Shown here one piece after another: positions 6,224-47,844 of a stretch of DNA of 62,660 bases (position 1 is the stretch's first letter; every line of letters begins with the position of its first letter). A program made the position numbers and the translations under genes. The DNA is from Bacillota bacterium (GTDB taxonomy: Bacteria; Bacillota_I; Bacilli_A; RFN20; CAG-826), in contig DAIQMS010000004.1 in the NCBI GenBank assembly GCA_036788815.1, positions 1-62,660 on the forward strand, in the 5' to 3' direction. Under the pieces are notes generated by a model that saw nothing but the letters and a program-made list of their open reading frames with translations, made no database searches and had not been told where the DNA came from.

Positions 6224-6706
6224 ATGGCAGAAGATAAGATGATCATGACCAAAGATGGCATGGACAAACTCGAAAAAGAGTACCGCCATCTCATCGATGT
6301 TGAACGTCCGGACGTCATCGCAGCCCTTCAGGCCGCCCGCGCCCAAGGCGACCTTTCCGAAAACGCCGATTATGATGCGGCCCGCAATAGACAGGCCCAG
6401 ATCGAAGCCCGGATCACCGAGATCGAGCACATCAAAGACATCGCCGTCGTGGTCGAAGAAGGCAAGCAGGGCAAGAAGATCTCGCTCGGCAACCTCGTGA
6501 CCTACAAAGAGAAAGATGGTTCTGAAACGACCGTGAAGATCGTCGGCACCGTCGAAGCCGATCCCTTTGCCACGCCCTATCCCTTGATTTCGAATGAGTC
6601 CGCCTTAGGCGTCGCGCTTCTCGGCCAAGTCGCCGGCAGCTCGATCACGGTCGAAAGCGATGAGCCCTACGAGATTGAGATCGAAAAAGTCGAAGTCGCG
6701 AAGTAA
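6224..6706 (+). CDS. greA: Transcription elongation factor GreA
   Basis: ARAQGDLSENADYDAA, ISNESALGVALLG. Confidence 0.97.
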   Translation: MAEDKMIMTKDGMDKLEKEYRHLIDVERPDVIAALQAARAQGDLSENADYDAARNRQAQIEARITEIEHIKDIAVVVEEGKQGKKISLGNLVTYKEKDGSETTVKIVGTVEADPFATPYPLISNESALGVALLGQVAGSSITVESDEPYEIEIEKVEVAK

Positions 6707-6755: not shown

Positions 6756-6791
6756 TGGGGCACGAATGGCTTTTTCTTGCCTATGGATATG
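6756..6791 (+). promoter_or_regulatory. Conserved upstream motif, copy 1 (TGGGGCAC-N8-TTTTCTTG-N-CTATNGATATG), upstream of comEA
   Basis: Ungapped match to 35785-35820. Confidence 0.7.
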
Positions 6792-39526: not shown

Positions 39527-39548
39527 CAAAAAGTACCCTTAAAAGGGG

Positions 39549-39576
39549 TTGACATCAATTAAACCGAGGTTAAAAT
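39549..39576 (+). promoter_or_regulatory. SigA promoter of the glycyl-tRNA synthetase gene
   Basis: TTGACA-16 nt-TAAAAT. Confidence 0.7.
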
Positions 39577-39629
39577 AACCTTCGTCTTTCTCATAGAGAA
39601 AGAGTTTTTATACTCAAAGGAGCCTGACA

Positions 39630-41009
39630 ATGGCTAGTAAATTTGATTTTGAGAAGATCACGTCGCATTTGCAGTTGACCGGATACGTCTATCCGGGTTC
39701 CCAGATCTACGGGGGCCTCTCGAATAGCTGGGACTATGGTCCTTTGGGCGCCGAACTCAAGAAAAACATCCGTGCCGCCTGGTGGAAACGTTTCGTCCAG
39801 GAATCGCCGACCAACGTCGGACTCGATGCGGGCATTCTCATGAATCCGAAGGTTTGGGAAGCCACTGGCCACGTCTCGACCTTCAACGATCCGATGGTGG
39901 ATTGCAAGGCTTGCAAGAGCCGCCAAAGAGCCGATGATCTCATCAAAGCCCAATATCCGAATGAAGACGTCGACAATATGACGTTTGAGGATATGGACAA
40001 ATTCATGCAGACCCATAAGATGGTCTGCCCGGTTTGCGGCAAGAGCGATTTCACTCCGATCCGCAAATTCAACATGATGTTCAAGACCCATGTCGGCGTC
40101 ACCGAAGACGATTCGGCGGTGGTCTATCTCCGTCCGGAAACCGCCCAAGGCGTCTTTGTTAACTTCAAAAACGTTCAGCGTTCGACCCGAAAGAAGATCC
40201 CGTTTGGCATCTGCAATTCGGGCAAGAGCTTCCGCAACGAGATTACTCCGGGGAACTTCATCTTCCGGACGCGCGAATTCGAGCAGATGGAAATGGAATT
40301 CTTCTGCAAGCCGGGGACCGATTTGGATTGGTTCAAGTATTGGAAGGATTTCTGCCTTAAATTCGTCGAAAGTCTCGGCCCGAAGGCTGAAAACCTTCGT
40401 TTCCGTGACCATGAGCCGGCGGAACTTGCTTTCTACAGCAAGGCCACGACCGATGTCGAATACGATTTCCCGACGATTGGCTGGGGCGAGATCCTCGGCG
40501 TCGCCGATCGCACCGACTACGATCTCAAGCGCCATCAAGACTACAGCAAAGAAGATCTGACCTACTTCGATCCGGAGACCAACGAGAAATACCTCCCGTT
40601 CGTCATCGAACCGTCGATGGGGCTTGATCGCTTGATGCTCATGACGATGATCGATGCCTATGATGAAGAAGCGCTTGAAGGCGGCGATACCCGCGTGGTT
40701 ATGCACCTTCTTCCGAGCTTAGCTCCGTATAAAGTGGCGGTGCTTCCGCTCTCAAAGAAGCTTGAGGATAAAGCGAACGAAGTGCTCGCGATCCTCAATC
40801 AGCACTTTATGTGCACCAGCGATTCGACCGGCTCGATCGGCAAACGCTATCGGCGCCAAGACGAAATCGGCACCCCGTTCTGCGTGACGATCGACTTCGA
40901 CACCGCGAATGATCAGTCCGTGACCATTCGTGAGCGCGATTCGATGAAGCAAATCCGGCTTCCGATTACCGAGCTTGTCAATTACTTCACCGTGAAGTGC
41001 TTCTATTGA
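39630..41009 (+). CDS. glyQS: Glycine--tRNA ligase (alpha2 type)
   Basis: WDYGPLG, YLRPETAQG, FRNEITPGNFIFRTREFEQME, IEPSMGLDR, IGKRYRRQDEIGTP. Confidence 0.97.
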   Translation: MASKFDFEKITSHLQLTGYVYPGSQIYGGLSNSWDYGPLGAELKKNIRAAWWKRFVQESPTNVGLDAGILMNPKVWEATGHVSTFNDPMVDCKACKSRQRADDLIKAQYPNEDVDNMTFEDMDKFMQTHKMVCPVCGKSDFTPIRKFNMMFKTHVGVTEDDSAVVYLRPETAQGVFVNFKNVQRSTRKKIPFGICNSGKSFRNEITPGNFIFRTREFEQMEMEFFCKPGTDLDWFKYWKDFCLKFVESLGPKAENLRFRDHEPAELAFYSKATTDVEYDFPTIGWGEILGVADRTDYDLKRHQDYSKEDLTYFDPETNEKYLPFVIEPSMGLDRLMLMTMIDAYDEEALEGGDTRVVMHLLPSLAPYKVAVLPLSKKLEDKANEVLAILNQHFMCTSDSTGSIGKRYRRQDEIGTPFCVTIDFDTANDQSVTIRERDSMKQIRLPITELVNYFTVKCFY

Positions 41010-41080: not shown

Positions 41081-42904
41081 ATGTACGATCGCGACTTAAT
41101 CGATAAGATCCTCGCCAGCGCTGACATTGTCACCATCATCTCCGCTTATATCCCCGTCACGAAGAAAGGCCGAAGCTACGTTGCGCTCTGCCCGTTCCAC
41201 GACGACAAGAATCCCTCGCTCAACATCTCAAAGGAAAAGCAGATTTTCAAATGCTTTGTCTGTGGGACCGGCGGCAATGCGATCACTTTCGTCGAGAAAT
41301 ACGAGAAGATTTCTTTTGAAGAAGCCGTCCGCAAGGTGGCCGATCTCATCAATTTCCACGATGAGCGCTTGGAAAAGCAGGCATACCATGCCTATGTCAA
41401 CCCCGAGCTCACCCCGCTTTACGCCTGCATCAGCGATTTGGAGAAGTATTACCAATACGCCCTGTCGATCCCCGAAGGCAAACTCGCCTCGGATTACCTC
41501 GCCGGGCGTCATATTTCCCCCGATCAAATCTCGAAATACGGCCTTGGCTACGCCCCGATGGACGGCGCCAAGACGGTTCAATACCTCCAAGCCAAGGGCC
41601 ATTCGCTCAAGGCGATCGAGGATATCGGCATCGCCCTCGCCAAAAAAGAAGGCACAAGCGATTCGAACGCCGGGCGATTGATCTTCCCGCTTTTCGATGC
41701 GGATGGTCAGGTCGTCGGCTTTTCCGCGCGCAAGCTCAAAGAGGAGCAATCCCCAAAATACGTCAACTCGCCTGGCACAAGAATCTTCGATAAGGGCAAG
41801 CTTTTATTCAATTATCAAAATGCCAAGAACACCGCCCGCCACGATGGCTATGTCTACGTTCTCGAAGGCTTCATGGATGTGATGGCCCTCGACAAAGCCG
41901 GCATTCCTTCGGCGGTGGCGCTCATGGGAACCTCCCTCACCAACGAGCAGATCTCTTTGCTTCGAAAACTCAATTGCGAAGTCCGACTTTGCCTCGATGG
42001 CGACGCGCCAGGGCAGGCGGGCATGATGAAAATGATCACGCTATTGAACCGTTCCGGCATCGCCTTCCGCCTTGTTTCGAACCCGGGCGACCTCCGCGAT
42101 CCAGACGATATCTTGCAGGAATCGGGGCCCGATGCCCTCAAGACGAGCATGAACCATCTCGTCGATGCCTTCGACTTCCAAGTCGATTACTACACCAATG
42201 TCAAAAAGCTCGATTCCCCCGAGGAAAAGAAGAAGGTCATGATGTATTTCATCCCCTTCCTCAGGAACGTTCCGGCCGGGATCGATCGCGATAACTACAT
42301 CGTCAAACTCTCGAAGGCGACCGGCTACGAAATCCGGGCGATCCGCGAGCAGATCAATCTGGCGGTGCCTGAAGAGACGACCGGCGAAGAGACCACCTAC
42401 ATCGATCAAATCGAGTTCGAGCGGCTCCATCCGGAAAAGATCGTCCTAAAGCGGCTCGTGAAAGCCGAGCGAGAAGCCCTCTTCTATATGCTGGAAGACA
42501 TGGGGGCGGTCAAATACTTCGAAGATCACATCGACAATTTCTACTATCCGCTCTACCAAGACATCGCGAACTACGTGGTGGATTACGTGGAGAAGCGGAA
42601 GGAGCCCGTCGATGTGAAATCCCTCCTTGGGGACATCGCCTCCTCCGGGGTCGATAACGCCGATGAGCTCGAAGCCAAAATCTCCGAGATCGTCGAAGAC
42701 AGCTACCATCCGCCCTATAGTGAGAAGACCATCGGCGATTGCGCCCTGGCCATCAAAGAAGAGAAAGACCGCGCCTATGACCGCGAGAGCACTGAGAAAG
42801 CCCTCGAAGGCAAAAGTGAGGCCGAGAAGACGAAGATCATCCAAGCTTATAGCAAACGTCAGGCCGAGAGGTTAAGGGCCCGGTCCAAGAAAAACAGCGC
42901 TTGA
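41081..42904 (+). CDS. dnaG: DNA primase
   Basis: [10 protein letters not shown]...CFVC Zn finger, PKYVNSP, TOPRIM EGFMDV, DGDAPG, DPDD. Confidence 0.97.
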
Positions 42905-42929
42905 GCGCTTAATGAGAAGGAACAGAGTT

Positions 42930-44524
<1,595 letters not shown>

Positions 44525-44525
<1 letters not shown>

Positions 44526-45541
44526 TGAAGAAAAAAGCAACAGGGCTCGAAGCGGCCGAGGCCTTCTTCCTTGAGCAAGCTCAGGGAAAAGGCTCGATCG
44601 ATCAGAACTTTTTGCTCGATGAAGCCGATGACTTTCTTTTAAGCGAGGAGGAATTCGAGAAACTCAGCGATTTCCTTTCGGCCCACAAGATCGCCATCCG
44701 CGACGACGAACTGATTCCAAACGAGAAGCCGCTTCAGGTTTCTTCGAGCGATCCGTTCCGTCTTTATCTTTCGCAAATGGGCCAATTCCCGCTTCTCTCC
44801 AAGGATCAGGAAATCGAGCTCGCCAAGAAAATCGCTCAAGGGGACCTCGAAGCAAAGAACGCTTTGATCAATAGCAACCTCCGGCTCGTCGTTTCGATTG
44901 CCAAGCATTATGCCAATAGCGGCGTTCCGATCCAGGACTTGATCCAGGAGGGGAACATCGGTTTGGCTCATGCGGCCGAAAAGTTTGACTACACCAAAGG
45001 TTTTAAGTTTTCGACTTACGCGACGTGGTGGATCAAGCAAGCCATCACCCGGGCGATCGCCGATCAATCCCGCAACATCCGGATTCCGGTCCATGTCGCC
45101 GAGACTTTGACCAAGATCAACCGCTCCCGCCACGAATTGGCGCAGAGTTTGGGCCGGGAAGCCACCGACGAAGAAGTGGCGGCCGCGCTCAAGATGCCGA
45201 TCGAAGACGTCCGTTATTATGCTTCTTTGCCGCTCAGCACGACCTCTTTAGACGCCCCGGTCGGGGATGACGAAGGGGACGAGATGAGTAATTTCGTCGC
45301 CGATCCGAGCGAGAACGATACCGATACGATCGACGTCGAGGACGATTTGGGGCTGATCTCCAAAGGAATGTCTTCTCTCAATGAGCGGGAGCGGAACATC
45401 ATCGTTCAGCTTTTTGGCCTCACCGACGGGGAGAGCAAATCCCTCGAAGAGGTCGGGGCCCAATACGGGCTCTCGCGCGAAAGAATCCGCCAAATCCGCG
45501 ATGGCGCCTTAGCGAAAATGCGGAAGGAACTCAAAAAATGA
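44525..45541 (+). CDS. Second RpoD-like (group 1/2) sigma-70 factor
   Basis: [79 protein letters not shown]; TGATG overlap with rpoD. Confidence 0.93.
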
Positions 45542-46215
45542 CGCTGTCGAAGAGGCTTTTAGCCGTGGCTGAGATGATCCCAGGAGGCGCGAAGATCGCC
45601 GACGTCGGGAGCGATCATGCCCAGCTGCCTCTTTTTCTTTTGGAACAGAAGCGGATTCAAAGCGCTGAGGCAATCGAGAATAAGCCCGGCCCTTACGCCC
45701 GAATGGCCAAAGCCGTTCGCTCCTCGGAATTTTCAGAACAAGTTTTGCTCTCTTTAAGCGACGGCATCTCTTCTTTAGCGGAAGAGGTGGATACGGTTGT
45801 CTTGGCGGGAATGGGCGGTCGCTTGATCCTGAGGATTATAAAGGACCATCCGGAAAAACTCGCTCAGGTCAAAACCATTGTGGTGGACGCCCATAACGAA
45901 AGACCTTTATTGATCGCCGAAATGGGGGCGCTTTCCTACCGTCTTGTCCAAGCGAAATTCTTTTATGACGAGGGTATCGCCTACGATGTGATGCGGTTCG
46001 ATAAAAATCCAGGTCCGATCGTCTATTCTTCGGAGGAATGCCTCTTTGGTCCGACTCATCTAAAAGAGGACCCTGGCCCGGATTTCCGCACCTATTGGTC
46101 GAAGGAAGAAAGCCGTTATGGGGACCTATTGAAGAATGAGCAGCTTTCGCCCAAAGCCCGTAACGACTACGAAACGCTGGTGAAAGCCATCCAGGAGGTT
46201 CTCCATGAACACTAG
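45538..46215 (+). CDS. trmK: tRNA m1A22 methyltransferase
   Basis: LSKRL, ADVGSDHAQLP, DGI, LAGMGG. Confidence 0.93.
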   Translation: MTLSKRLLAVAEMIPGGAKIADVGSDHAQLPLFLLEQKRIQSAEAIENKPGPYARMAKAVRSSEFSEQVLLSLSDGISSLAEEVDTVVLAGMGGRLILRIIKDHPEKLAQVKTIVVDAHNERPLLIAEMGALSYRLVQAKFFYDEGIAYDVMRFDKNPGPIVYSSEECLFGPTHLKEDPGPDFRTYWSKEESRYGDLLKNEQLSPKARNDYETLVKAIQEVLHEH

Positions 46216-46969
46216 ATCATTGCTCCGTTCTTTGGCGGTATATTATCCCCAAAGACTGCGGGAATCCTACGACCACGGCGGTTTGATGGTCGGAAAGCTT
46301 CCTCTTGAGACAAAGAAGATCTTCCTTTGCCTTGATTTCGACGATGAAGTCTATCCTTTGGCCCTCAAAGAGAAGCCGGATCTCATCCTAACCCACCATC
46401 CGTTTTTCTTCGGGAGCCGGAATAAGATCCTGAAGGAGGATCCCGTCAAAGCCGCACTTTATGAGAAGATGCTCCAAGCGGGCATGACCCTTTGCTCGTA
46501 CCACACGAATTTCGATTCCGGGAATCCCGGAATGAACGACGAATTGGCCGAAAAGCTCGGTTTGATCGATCCTAAACCTTTACTGGAAGCTCCGATGGCA
46601 CGGGGCGGAAGACTGCCTGAGCCGATGGAAATCCACGCTTTTGCGCGCTTCGCGAAAAGCAAATTAGGCGTTGATTATGGCCTTCTTATCGCAGCAGGGA
46701 AGCAAGAGATTACGACGGTCGCGCTCATTGGCGGCGGGGGATGGATGGAAAACGAGATCGCTCAGAAGGAAGGCTACGATATTTACCTCTCCGGCGACTG
46801 TCCGCATCATGGAAGACGGGAAATAGTACTTCGCAATTACAATTATCTTGATCTTCCTCATGAAATCGAAAAAGCGTTTATGACTAGAATGACTAAAACA
46901 TTACTAACTATTAACCAATCCTTAGTCATTTCATCCGTTGATCACGAAAAACTTCCGGAAGTGATTTAA
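46205..46969 (+). CDS. Nif3-like dinuclear metal-centre protein (YqfO/YbgI)
   Basis: LILTHHPFF, YHTNFD, YLSGD, HEIE. Confidence 0.9.
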   Translation: MNTRSLLRSLAVYYPQRLRESYDHGGLMVGKLPLETKKIFLCLDFDDEVYPLALKEKPDLILTHHPFFFGSRNKILKEDPVKAALYEKMLQAGMTLCSYHTNFDSGNPGMNDELAEKLGLIDPKPLLEAPMARGGRLPEPMEIHAFARFAKSKLGVDYGLLIAAGKQEITTVALIGGGGWMENEIAQKEGYDIYLSGDCPHHGRREIVLRNYNYLDLPHEIEKAFMTRMTKTLLTINQSLVISSVDHEKLPEVI

Positions 46970-47844
46970 AGAGTCTTTAGATAGGCTTCAACCTCGGAAA
47001 ATACCAGGGGCGAAGTCGAAGCACCGCTCGCAAGGGCGGCTTTCTTTTTGCCCGTAAGATCGTGCGATTGGAGATCGGCTAAATCCAAAACCCGGAGCAC
47101 CGGAACTTTGGGGTAGGCTTTCTTTGCGACGGCTTCAAGCTTCAAAGTGTTGTTGCTGCGGCTTGAGCCCAAAATGATATAAACATCGATGTCTTCAGGG
47201 GCGGTAAGGATCGCCGTCTGGCGGCGCTGAGTGGCCGAGCAGCGTTCGGCTTGGAAGCGGGCCGACGGATAGATGCGGCGGATGCTTTCTTGAGCGGACG
47301 CGATATCATCGAGGTCCATGGTCGTCTGGGCAAGGACAAGTGGCGAGGAAGATTCGATGCTTTGCCAGGAATCATCCTCAGGATGCTCGCTGTCGAAGAG
47401 ATGGACGCGCGCGGAATCGATTCCCAAAGTCGCGATCGCTTCGGCGTGTTTCTTACGGCCGATATAAATGACGTCGTTCCCGATTTGGGTCTCCCGGGAA
47501 ATGACAAAAGCGTTATCCTTCACGAAATGGCAGGTGGCATCGTAAGTAATGAGGTGACGGTCCTCAGCCATCCGATCTAATCTCGGCGCGTGGCCGTGGG
47601 CGGCGAAAACAACGACGCTCCGCTCGGGGATTTCCGCGATCCATTCTTCGAGGCTTTTCGTTTGCTCATCGCAAAAAAGAAACCCCTCTTTTTCTAAACG
47701 CCCGATGACGTCTTCGTTGTGGACCAAAAGGCCTAAAACATAGATGGGGCCTATCGGATGCTCCTTTCGGGCTTCCTTGGCTTTAAGCAAGGCCGAAACA
47801 ACGCCCTCGCAAAAACCATGCGGTTCGATCGATATAACTTCCAT
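46966..47844 (-). CDS. ispH: HMBPP reductase IspH
   Basis: GFCEGV, LVHN, AHG, DATCHFV, CSATQRRQ, SGASTSP. Confidence 0.93.
   Translation of the reverse strand: MEVISIEPHGFCEGVVSALLKAKEARKEHPIGPIYVLGLLVHNEDVIGRLEKEGFLFCDEQTKSLEEWIAEIPERSVVVFAAHGHAPRLDRMAEDRHLITYDATCHFVKDNAFVISRETQIGNDVIYIGRKKHAEAIATLGIDSARVHLFDSEHPEDDSWQSIESSSPLVLAQTTMDLDDIASAQESIRRIYPSARFQAERCSATQRRQTAILTAPEDIDVYIILGSSRSNNTLKLEAVAKKAYPKVPVLRVLDLADLQSHDLTGKKKAALASGASTSPLVFSEVEAYLKTL

Follow-up and report, generated by a model that had tools for sequence, protein, structure and literature searches.

Most study of primary-like sigma factor paralogues has been done in cyanobacteria, actinobacteria, and proteobacteria, and much less in Firmicutes. 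The group 2 sigma factors of cyanobacteria (SigB to SigE) and actinobacteria (HrdA, HrdC, HrdD, and SigB, including HrdA and HrdD of Streptomyces) coexist with an essential primary sigma factor and keep its DNA-recognition determinants. They change more rapidly in sequence than the primary sigma factor and adjust how similar promoters are used, and the absence of region 1.1 is a common domain-based definition of the group. To our knowledge, SigA2 of Clostridioides difficile is almost the only primary-like paralogue of a Firmicute for which there are any expression data. Here we analyze a 62,660-nucleotide (nt) stretch of contig DAIQMS010000004.1 from an uncultured member of the Bacilli (hereafter, the window), in which a gene that we call sig2 encodes a second primary-type sigma factor directly behind rpoD. 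We conclude that sig2 is probably a functional paralogue of the primary sigma factor, specific to one clade and with a group 1 layout and group 2-like behavior, that is co-expressed with rpoD and acts at SigA-type promoters.

In C. difficile, sigA2 (CD1498) is separate from sigA1 (CD1455), which belongs to the dnaG operon, and SigA2 is classed in group 1 on the basis of its sequence (PMC7438776, Table 1). The sigA2 gene has a SigH-dependent promoter, is annotated as a stationary-phase gene, and shows no significant vegetative expression. Like SigA2, sig2 is a second RpoD/SigA-type sigma factor beside a dnaG-linked canonical sigA in a Firmicute. Unlike sigA2, which has a separate locus and its own promoter, sig2 overlaps the stop codon of rpoD and no promoter was detected for it; this comparison is one of gene arrangement. 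Turicibacter is placed in the class Bacilli by GTDB. Three sigA paralogues have been reported for Turicibacter sanguinis (bioRxiv 10.64898/2026.01.06.697881). These are known as annotations at dispersed loci, and none of them was among the 80 genome loci closest to sig2. As with the group 2 sigmas, sig2 coexists with a primary sigma, retains the recognition determinants, and evolves faster. However, group 2 genes are usually dispersed and individually regulated, and their products are commonly described without region 1.1, whereas sig2 sits in the rpoD operon and has region 1.1.

A first-pass annotation, made from the letters of the window, had read sig2 as a full-length RpoD-type sigma factor derived from an old duplication, and the protein strings it quoted (GKGSIDQNFLL, WWIKQAITR, PVHVAET, RERIRQ, and IRDGALAKMRK) are all present. 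It had also named absence or disruption of the gene in close relatives, and neutral evolution, as outcomes that would speak against it. We found neither. A database search returned about 41 intact members of the sig2 family with 47 to 97% identity, all from metagenomes or metagenome-assembled genomes (MAGs) labelled Bacilli. The order dnaG-rpoD-sig2-trmK is identical in all 11 distinct relatives for which DNA was fetched (L001, L002/L081, L084, L087, L089, L090, L091, L092, L093, L094, and L096), although in L090 and L093 the contig stops short of a complete rpoD. We estimated the ratio of nonsynonymous to synonymous substitution rates (dN/dS) against close relatives by the Nei-Gojobori method. 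At full length it was 0.023 to 0.058 for sig2 and 0.046 to 0.074 for rpoD, and in the core it was 0.017 to 0.048 for sig2 and 0.016 to 0.029 for rpoD; because dS is 0.8 to 1.8, near saturation, these ratios are approximate, though clearly far below 1. Thus, sig2 is a real conserved gene under strong purifying selection.

The family is confined to one clade. When 1.84 billion cluster representatives were searched with a profile, three proved to belong to the sig2 family (P0015, P0043, and P0121), and the next matches were assembly chimeras with duplicated domains, followed by the RpoD continuum. The nearest sampled genomes outside the clade carry a single sigma gene between dnaG and trmK (L005, L017 [Firmicutes bacterium CAG:449], L030, L054, L064, and L068 [an Acholeplasmatales MAG]). 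Identity to the window is 86 to 90% for glyQS and 72 to 86% for dnaG within the sig2-bearing clade, compared with 56 to 69% and 34 to 44% in the outgroups. The clade-wide presence of sig2 and its absence from the nearest outgroups indicate that it arose at or before the base of this clade and has been kept since.

We considered and rejected pseudogenization, because the three disrupted copies in the databases are assembly artifacts. On the contig of P0024 (L095), glyQS, dnaG, and rpoD are fragmented like sig2. P0022 is a chimeric, frameshifted assembly that runs into trmK. P0046 (L096, ~6578 to 6597) comes from sample 3300059061, and contigs L089 and L093 of that sample also carry frameshifts. 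We observed single frameshifts in this JGI sample in region 1.1 of rpoD on L089 (~380 to 420) and in nif3 and ispH on L093 (2460 to 4141), which are probably assembly errors and not pseudogenes. An apparent triple sigma array in L089 was likewise rejected, as its first two open reading frames (ORFs) are a single rpoD broken by a 1-nt frameshift.

The sig2 protein aligns with RpoD at 42% identity over 337 columns (BLASTP, E = 4e-82) and exceeds all four Pfam gathering scores: 52.4 versus 22 for PF00140, 81.1 versus 24 for PF04542, 68.8 versus 25.3 for PF04539, and 60.9 versus 24.1 for PF04545. Its features are as follows.

44525-45541, + strand: sig2, second primary-type sigma factor, 338 amino acids (aa) (ORF, BLASTP, Pfam, AlphaFold2 model)
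44540-44716, + strand: region 1.1-like acidic domain, residues ~6 to 64, followed by an unusually short linker (profile comparison)
44750-44848, + strand: region 1.2, residues 76 to 108 (Pfam PF00140, 52.4 bits)
44864-45073, + strand: region 2 (core binding, -10 recognition, melting), residues 114 to 183 (Pfam PF04542)
45101-45316, + strand: region 3, residues 193 to 264, with a diverged sigma finger, PVGDDEGDEMSNFVAD (Pfam PF04539)
45368-45526, + strand: region 4, residues 282 to 334, with the family signature (Pfam PF04545)

The first-pass annotation was therefore right that regions 1.1 to 4 are all represented, region 1.1 by profile evidence. The Pfam model for region 1.1 did not match the N terminus of the sig2 in the window, although Sigma70_r1_1 was found in 13 of 22 members of the family. 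The N termini of 34 members, taken as a profile, matched a profile of region 1.1 from 81 other RpoDs, mostly from Firmicutes (hhalign probability 96.5%, E = 7e-10). When a profile of the same kind was compared with PDB sequences, the top four matches were SigA region 1.1 in register (5mww, 7l7b, 8x6f, and 7ckq), and the isolated Bacillus subtilis domain (5mww) aligned in register at residues 6 to 70. Residues 1 to 75 are acidic, with 17 D+E and 8 K+R. In the AlphaFold2 model, which has a mean predicted local distance difference test score (pLDDT) of 74.9, the N terminus folds into a small helical domain with two strands (helices 8 to 19, 27 to 36, and 41 to 53; strands 24 to 26 and 57 to 59; pLDDT ~75 to 80). 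These comparisons support homology of the N-terminal domain to region 1.1. The linker from region 1.1 to region 1.2 is about 12 to 15 residues in most members and about 55 in the basal P0042/P0121 lineage. Residues 239 to 269 have a pLDDT below 50, and the sigma finger reads GDEMSNFVAD, where RpoD has a different stretch. The protein stops 4 residues past region 4 and so has no C-terminal tail.

The whole model gave full-length Foldseek matches to SigA and RpoS holoenzyme structures. The best solved-structure matches are SigA of B. subtilis and Staphylococcus aureus (7ckq, 8x6f, and 5mww), which share the domain order of sig2, region 1.1 included, and are 48% identical to it over regions 1.2 to 4. 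However, SigA is single copy and essential in these species, whereas sig2 falls short of the SigA equivalog cutoff (307 versus 572) and is marked by its short linker and its region 4 signature. It also scores below the NCBIfam cutoffs for RpoD/SigA equivalogs (NF004208, 321.8 versus 555; NF006666, 307.4 versus 572; TIGR02393, 275.8 versus 354) and for RpoS (TIGR02394, 302.8 versus 378.7; NF004207, 286.8 versus 394). It is far below the cutoff for MzaA, the sigma factor of an anti-phage system (NF041931, 280.6 versus 800), and its context is a housekeeping operon. Held against the definition of group 1, sig2 has region 1.1 but lies below the equivalog cutoffs and is not a slowly evolving orthologue. 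Held against that of group 2, it coexists with a bona fide primary sigma and keeps the recognition residues of regions 2.4, 3.0, and 4.2, but its region 1.1 homologue sets it apart from a group defined as lacking that region.

To place the conserved residues, we compared the sig2 family with 87 other RpoD-type sigmas and scored invariance across 34 sig2 members. Positions were numbered as in Escherichia coli sigma-70 by PDB alignment offsets. There are 94 columns that are conserved and identical in the two sets. Residues D138, Q141, G143, N144, F162, T164, Y165, W168, W169, Q172, and R176 of sig2 are invariant, and conservation is at least 90% at L139, I140, and E142. In region 2.2, the segment DLIQEGNIGL, which we take to bind core, is invariant or almost so. 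Further along, the invariant residues are H190, R318, E319, R320, R322, and Q323, and E193 reaches at least 90% conservation. W168, W169, Q172, R176, H190, and E193 correspond to W433, W434, Q437, R441, H455, and E458 of sigma-70, and R318, E319, R320, R322, and Q323 map to the R584-to-Q589 span. Q172, R176, H190, E193, and the same five region 4 residues are those of the RpoD consensus. On this mapping, sig2 retains the melting aromatics (W433 and W434), the region 2.4 residues Q437, T440, and R441, the region 3.0 residues H455 and E458, and R554, L573, E574, E575, G577, R584, E585, R586, R588, and Q589 in region 4. The proposal that the residues contacting the -10, extended -10, and -35 elements are kept is supported across the family.

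Another 16 columns are conserved but different in the two sets, and 10 of the 16 are in region 4. The family-wide changes are R562L, T572S, V582L, T583S, E591R, A592D, L598M, and H600K. In addition, K593 is replaced by G, A, or S, R596 is mostly non-basic, and the RpoD tail past H600 is missing. The divergent C terminus that the first-pass annotation had noticed (IRDGALAKMRK, different from RpoD) thus belongs to a change of region 4 throughout the family. K593 and R596 are generally kept in group 2 sigmas, in contrast to their replacement here. R562, K593, and R596 are among the -35-interacting residues, and R562 and L598 are among those that bind core (PMC4943231). Lambda CI makes contact with a basic patch that consists of R588, K593, and R596 (PMC1874639).

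The genes around sig2 form a co-directional block with the following features.

39549-39576, + strand: candidate operon promoter, sigma-A-type-like TTGACA-16-TAAAAT (11/12), upstream of glyQS (consensus scan)
39630-41009, + strand: glyQS, glycyl-tRNA synthetase, opening the conserved block (ORF; Pfam families of the orthologues there)
41081-42904, + strand: dnaG, DNA primase (Pfam Zn_ribbon_DnaG, DNAG_N, Toprim, DnaB_bind)
42912-44525, + strand: rpoD, primary sigma factor, 537 aa (Pfam regions 1.1 [weak], 1.2, 2, 3, and 4)
44514-44517, + strand: GGAG Shine-Dalgarno sequence for sig2, within the 3' end of rpoD, with the ATG 7 nt further on
44523-44527, + strand: TGATG stop/start overlap of rpoD (TGA, 44523-44525) and sig2 (ATG, 44525-44527), the A being common to both
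45538-46215, + strand: trmK, tRNA m1A22 methyltransferase (Pfam TrmK), whose ATG overlaps the sig2 stop codon (ATGA)
46205-46969, + strand: NIF3/DUF34 gene, closing the block (Pfam PF01784)
47024-47039, + strand: best terminator-like hairpin, 5 G-C pairs and a T run, 3' of the block

The overlap of the sig2 start with the rpoD stop, behind GGAG, is as the first-pass annotation had described it, and it makes translational coupling, its further claim, plausible. The start codon is the ATG at 44525, with an in-frame TTG at 44522 as a possible alternative. The 1-nt overlap (TGATG or TAATG) is found in the window, L091, L001, and L089, and a gap of 2 to 22 nt in L094, L002, L084, and L087. Motifs like AAGGAG or GAGG also precede sig2 in L091, L001, L084, and L087.

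The site at 39549-39576 is the sole strong promoter-like site in the neighborhood by a scan that used consensus sigma-70 hexamers only. Between it and sig2, the scan found no + strand site of at least 9/12 except a weak one within glyQS. No consensus promoter was found within rpoD, nor a consensus terminator between rpoD and sig2, and from dnaG to trmK the consensus scans found nothing that would separate the two sigma genes. The + strand terminator matches within the block (44746, 45389, and 46225) have 3 G-C pairs each, and the 21 matches of the region as a whole are no excess over shuffled sequence (16.7; standard deviation, 4.0). At the Rfam gathering thresholds, no family was found in the whole window, and hence no leader or attenuator that would bear on the operon. 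The GC content of sig2, overall and at third codon positions (GC3), equals that of the adjacent genes. By similarity to sig2, the window has no other sigma-70 family ORF, and no anti-sigma or regulator gene adjoins sig2 in the window or the related loci. As a separate observation, the spacer of about 100 nt upstream of glyQS (39527-39629) holds, besides the near-consensus promoter, a hairpin with a T-rich tail (39585-39603); Rfam found no T-box there.

The co-resident rpoD passes the TIGR02393 model RpoD_Cterm (398.8 versus a cutoff of 354). Over 260 aligned core columns it is 93 to 99% identical across the clade and 84 to 85% identical to the single sigma of L005, L017, and L030. Across the same genomes the sig2 core is 53 to 89% identical, and its distances are a median of 12-fold larger. 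By these sequence comparisons, rpoD is the true SigA orthologue and the primary sigma factor of this genome. It has two additions of its own.

42912-43175, + strand: basic, K/A/P-rich N-terminal tail of RpoD, residues 1 to ~88, with short repeats whose offsets are multiples of 3 nt (in many cases 9 nt)
43659-43751, + strand: insertion of ~28 aa between regions 1.2 and 2.1 of RpoD (BLASTP gaps, cross-locus comparison), missing from the sig2 of the window

Both had been noticed in the first-pass annotation as features that sig2 lacks, and this is so: the histone-like tail has no counterpart in sig2, and the insertion appears as a 28-aa gap in the BLASTP alignment. The tail is specific to the clade, where its length ranges from ~17 to ~110 aa (L001, L084, L087, and L089 also have it), and the nearest outgroup RpoDs have acidic N termini in its place. 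The RpoD of the Acholeplasmatales MAG L068 (3325-4539) likewise has an insertion between regions 1.2 and 2.1, at that very site and of comparable size. The insertion may therefore predate the sig2-bearing clade or have arisen more than once.

We suggest that sig2 is transcribed with glyQS, dnaG, rpoD, trmK, and nif3 from the operon promoter and that the ribosomes that translate it are those finishing rpoD at its stop codon. Because the consensus scans found no promoter-like site within rpoD and no terminator between the genes, and the lone strong promoter-like site precedes glyQS, co-expression with rpoD is most likely; given the TGATG overlap and the Shine-Dalgarno sequence, sig2 would be made whenever rpoD is made. 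The protein would bind core RNA polymerase through its unchanged region 2.2 and would read a TATAAT-type -10 element, a TG extended -10, and a TTGACA-type -35 element through its unchanged base-contacting residues. It differs from RpoD in having no basic tail, no insertion between regions 1.2 and 2.1, a very short linker after region 1.1, and a diverged sigma finger. It also differs in the loss of R562, K593, and R596, in the reversed charge at E591, and in the missing C-terminal tail. In E. coli sigma-70, R562, K593, and R596 touch the -35 backbone or class II activators. A second holoenzyme would thus compete with that of RpoD for the same promoter class and would rank promoters differently, relying less on contacts to the -35 backbone and between regulators and region 4. 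The residue pattern predicts the same promoter class, weaker nonspecific -35 contacts, other regulator contacts, and possibly other initiation kinetics. The comparison with group 2 sigmas, also made in the first-pass annotation, agrees with the co-resident primary rpoD, the kept recognition residues, and two accessory-like traits of sig2, a core that evolves about 12-fold faster than that of rpoD and protein scores below all NCBIfam cutoffs for RpoD and RpoS.

Several points weigh against this reading, besides the near-saturated dS noted above. Some members have S, A, or N in place of T440 (T175 of sig2), and a few have D, A, or Q in place of E458, so that promoter specificity is possibly not uniform across the family. 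The residue roles are carried over from E. coli and Thermus, organisms other than the host. The short linker may keep region 1.1 of sig2 from the DNA channel, unlike that of RpoD. Finally, a hexamer-only scan leaves room for a non-consensus promoter inside rpoD. Such a promoter in the 3' part of rpoD, or else proteolysis or an anti-sigma factor, could make sig2 a separately regulated stationary-phase or stress sigma, similar to C. difficile SigA2 or RpoS, that replaces RpoD under particular conditions. In favor of this, C. difficile sigA2 is a second SigA with a SigH promoter and a stationary-phase annotation, the RpoS model scores sig2 nearly as well as the RpoD models (302.8 bits), sig2 evolves fast as non-essential sigmas do, and its region 4 surface is altered at regulator-binding positions. 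However, no promoter-like site was found within rpoD by the consensus scan, in all lineages rpoD and sig2 either overlap or lie no more than 22 nt apart, no anti-sigma or regulator gene adjoins sig2, and similarity to sig2 revealed no further sigma-70 ORF, such as SigH, in the window. The predicted co-transcription itself argues against a separate growth-phase use, and we consider it unlikely. The loss of three basic contact residues in region 4, together with the diverged sigma finger and the missing C-terminal tail, could also indicate that sig2 is not an initiation factor but a competitor or decoy, which would occupy core RNA polymerase or titrate an RpoD-binding regulator. However, the base-specific contacts and the melting aromatics are invariant among members that are otherwise just 47% identical, which would not be expected of a decoy, and we regard this explanation as highly improbable. 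An initiation factor co-expressed with RpoD remains our preferred reading, and one extension of it is a constitutive system of two housekeeping sigmas, whose holoenzymes, present in a fixed ratio, split SigA promoters by architecture and not by growth phase. Here an RpoD that gained a histone-like tail and the 1.2/2.1 insertion may be paired with a minimal sig2 that shed the R562/K593/R596 patch and the C-terminal tail. This extension is doubtful; if true, such partitioning by promoter architecture would be a mode not described for group 2 sigmas.

The origin of sig2 calls for similar weighing. In a neighbor-joining tree of 260 core columns, sig2 lies on a long branch outside all sampled RpoDs. 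Its family is monophyletic in 100 of 100 bootstraps, but sig2 and the co-resident rpoD are joined in none, so that the sigma phylogeny called for by the first-pass annotation bears out the family and does not recover the placement of the duplication. This result speaks against taking an in-place duplication as proven by trees, and it would fit a sig2 acquired horizontally, from another Firmicute or a phage, that landed beside rpoD. Other observations would fit as well. The co-resident rpoDs rank 26 to 57 of 94 in closeness to the sig2 consensus, no nearer than the RpoDs of Clostridia, and the three columns that they share exclusively with sig2 are within the 0 to 4 seen for unrelated groups and amount to noise. 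However, no donor stands out, as the consensus is 51 to 54% identical to all Firmicute RpoDs without preference, and among 1.8 billion representatives the profile found the three family clusters and then a continuum. Moreover, the GC3 of sig2 equals that of its neighbors, and every member occupies the exact position between rpoD and trmK. In addition, the sig2 of L084 (6001-7128; P0027) has an insertion of 33 aa at the exact site, and of the same length, as the clade-specific rpoD insertion. It has 10 to 13 ungapped identities to the rpoD insertions of the clade (shuffle P <= 0.001) and 13 of 33 to that of the window, a number reached by none of 20,000 shuffles. The sig2 of L087 (4572-5762; P0037/P0038) also has an insertion at that site, which is longer and less similar. 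The long branch that follows from the 12-fold faster rate is sufficient to explain the position of sig2 in the tree. A horizontal origin is thus quite improbable. The invariant tandem position and the insertion site shared with rpoD favor a local origin, and sig2 is most likely a local duplicate of rpoD that then accelerated. The clade-wide distribution bears out the old age in the earlier proposal, whereas the local duplication is an explanation that the trees do not show. Recent gene conversion between rpoD and sig2 was considered and rejected, as the two genes match at best at 73% over 275 nt of DNA and share no long identical tract.

Tandem RpoD-type pairs are not unique to this clade. Among 78 non-family loci fetched by similarity, seven unrelated ones from Clostridia MAGs, several of them labelled Ruminococcus or Acutalibacteraceae, have such a pair directly after dnaG.

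L023, 4641-6954: tandem pair
L029, 5806-8051: tandem pair
L071, 5152-8028: tandem pair
L072, 4411-6816: tandem pair
L074, 4349-6816: tandem pair
L075, 5719-7968: tandem pair
L079, 5884-8053: tandem pair

As at the sig2 locus, these pairs follow dnaG, and trmK is sometimes next. Unlike sig2, these copies join one another or local relatives in the tree, none falls in the sig2 family, and most have a canonical region 4 and the canonical IEAKALRKLRHPSRSK end. Of the two copies in L029, L079, and L071, it is the upstream one that has diverged. The Clostridia pairs appear to be independent and mostly younger duplications.

The novelty of sig2 is therefore modest. Because of C. difficile, Turicibacter, and the seven Clostridia MAGs, the kind of paralogue is already known and duplication in tandem behind dnaG is recurrent, so that another outcome named as adverse in the first-pass annotation, that tandem rpoD pairs are already documented, has in part come about. 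What is new is the sig2 family itself, which stands out in being old, in being tightly coupled to rpoD, in having retained region 1.1, and in its region 4 signature. It overturns no current view of sigma factor biology. The family is compact and under strong selection, is restricted to a single clade of uncultured Bacilli, and is hard-wired into the dnaG-rpoD operon; assembled contigs of about 1.5 Mb suggest that the genomes of this clade are small. The family offers a natural experiment, in which the base-reading residues of region 4 are kept and the basic backbone and activator patch is removed. The repeated tandem duplication of sigA behind dnaG in Firmicutes also matters for genome annotation, in which the two copies usually both receive the label RpoD/SigA, and for treating rpoD as a single-copy marker.

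The TGGGGCAC box of the first-pass annotation is unrelated to the locus. It has three + strand matches in the window where 0.86 are expected, and 6 of 100 shuffles reach three, which is not significant. The matches are at 6756, 9175, and 35785, and two lie just upstream of ORF starts (6766 and 35822).

Just downstream of sig2, trmK differs from its neighbors. The trmK genes of the window (45538-46215) and L091 (6017-6694) are just 66% identical, whereas dnaG, rpoD, and sig2 are 94 to 97% identical in the same pair. The corresponding dN is 0.29 for trmK and 0.03 for dnaG, rpoD, and sig2. This divergence reflects either very fast evolution or the replacement of a trmK allele by recombination.

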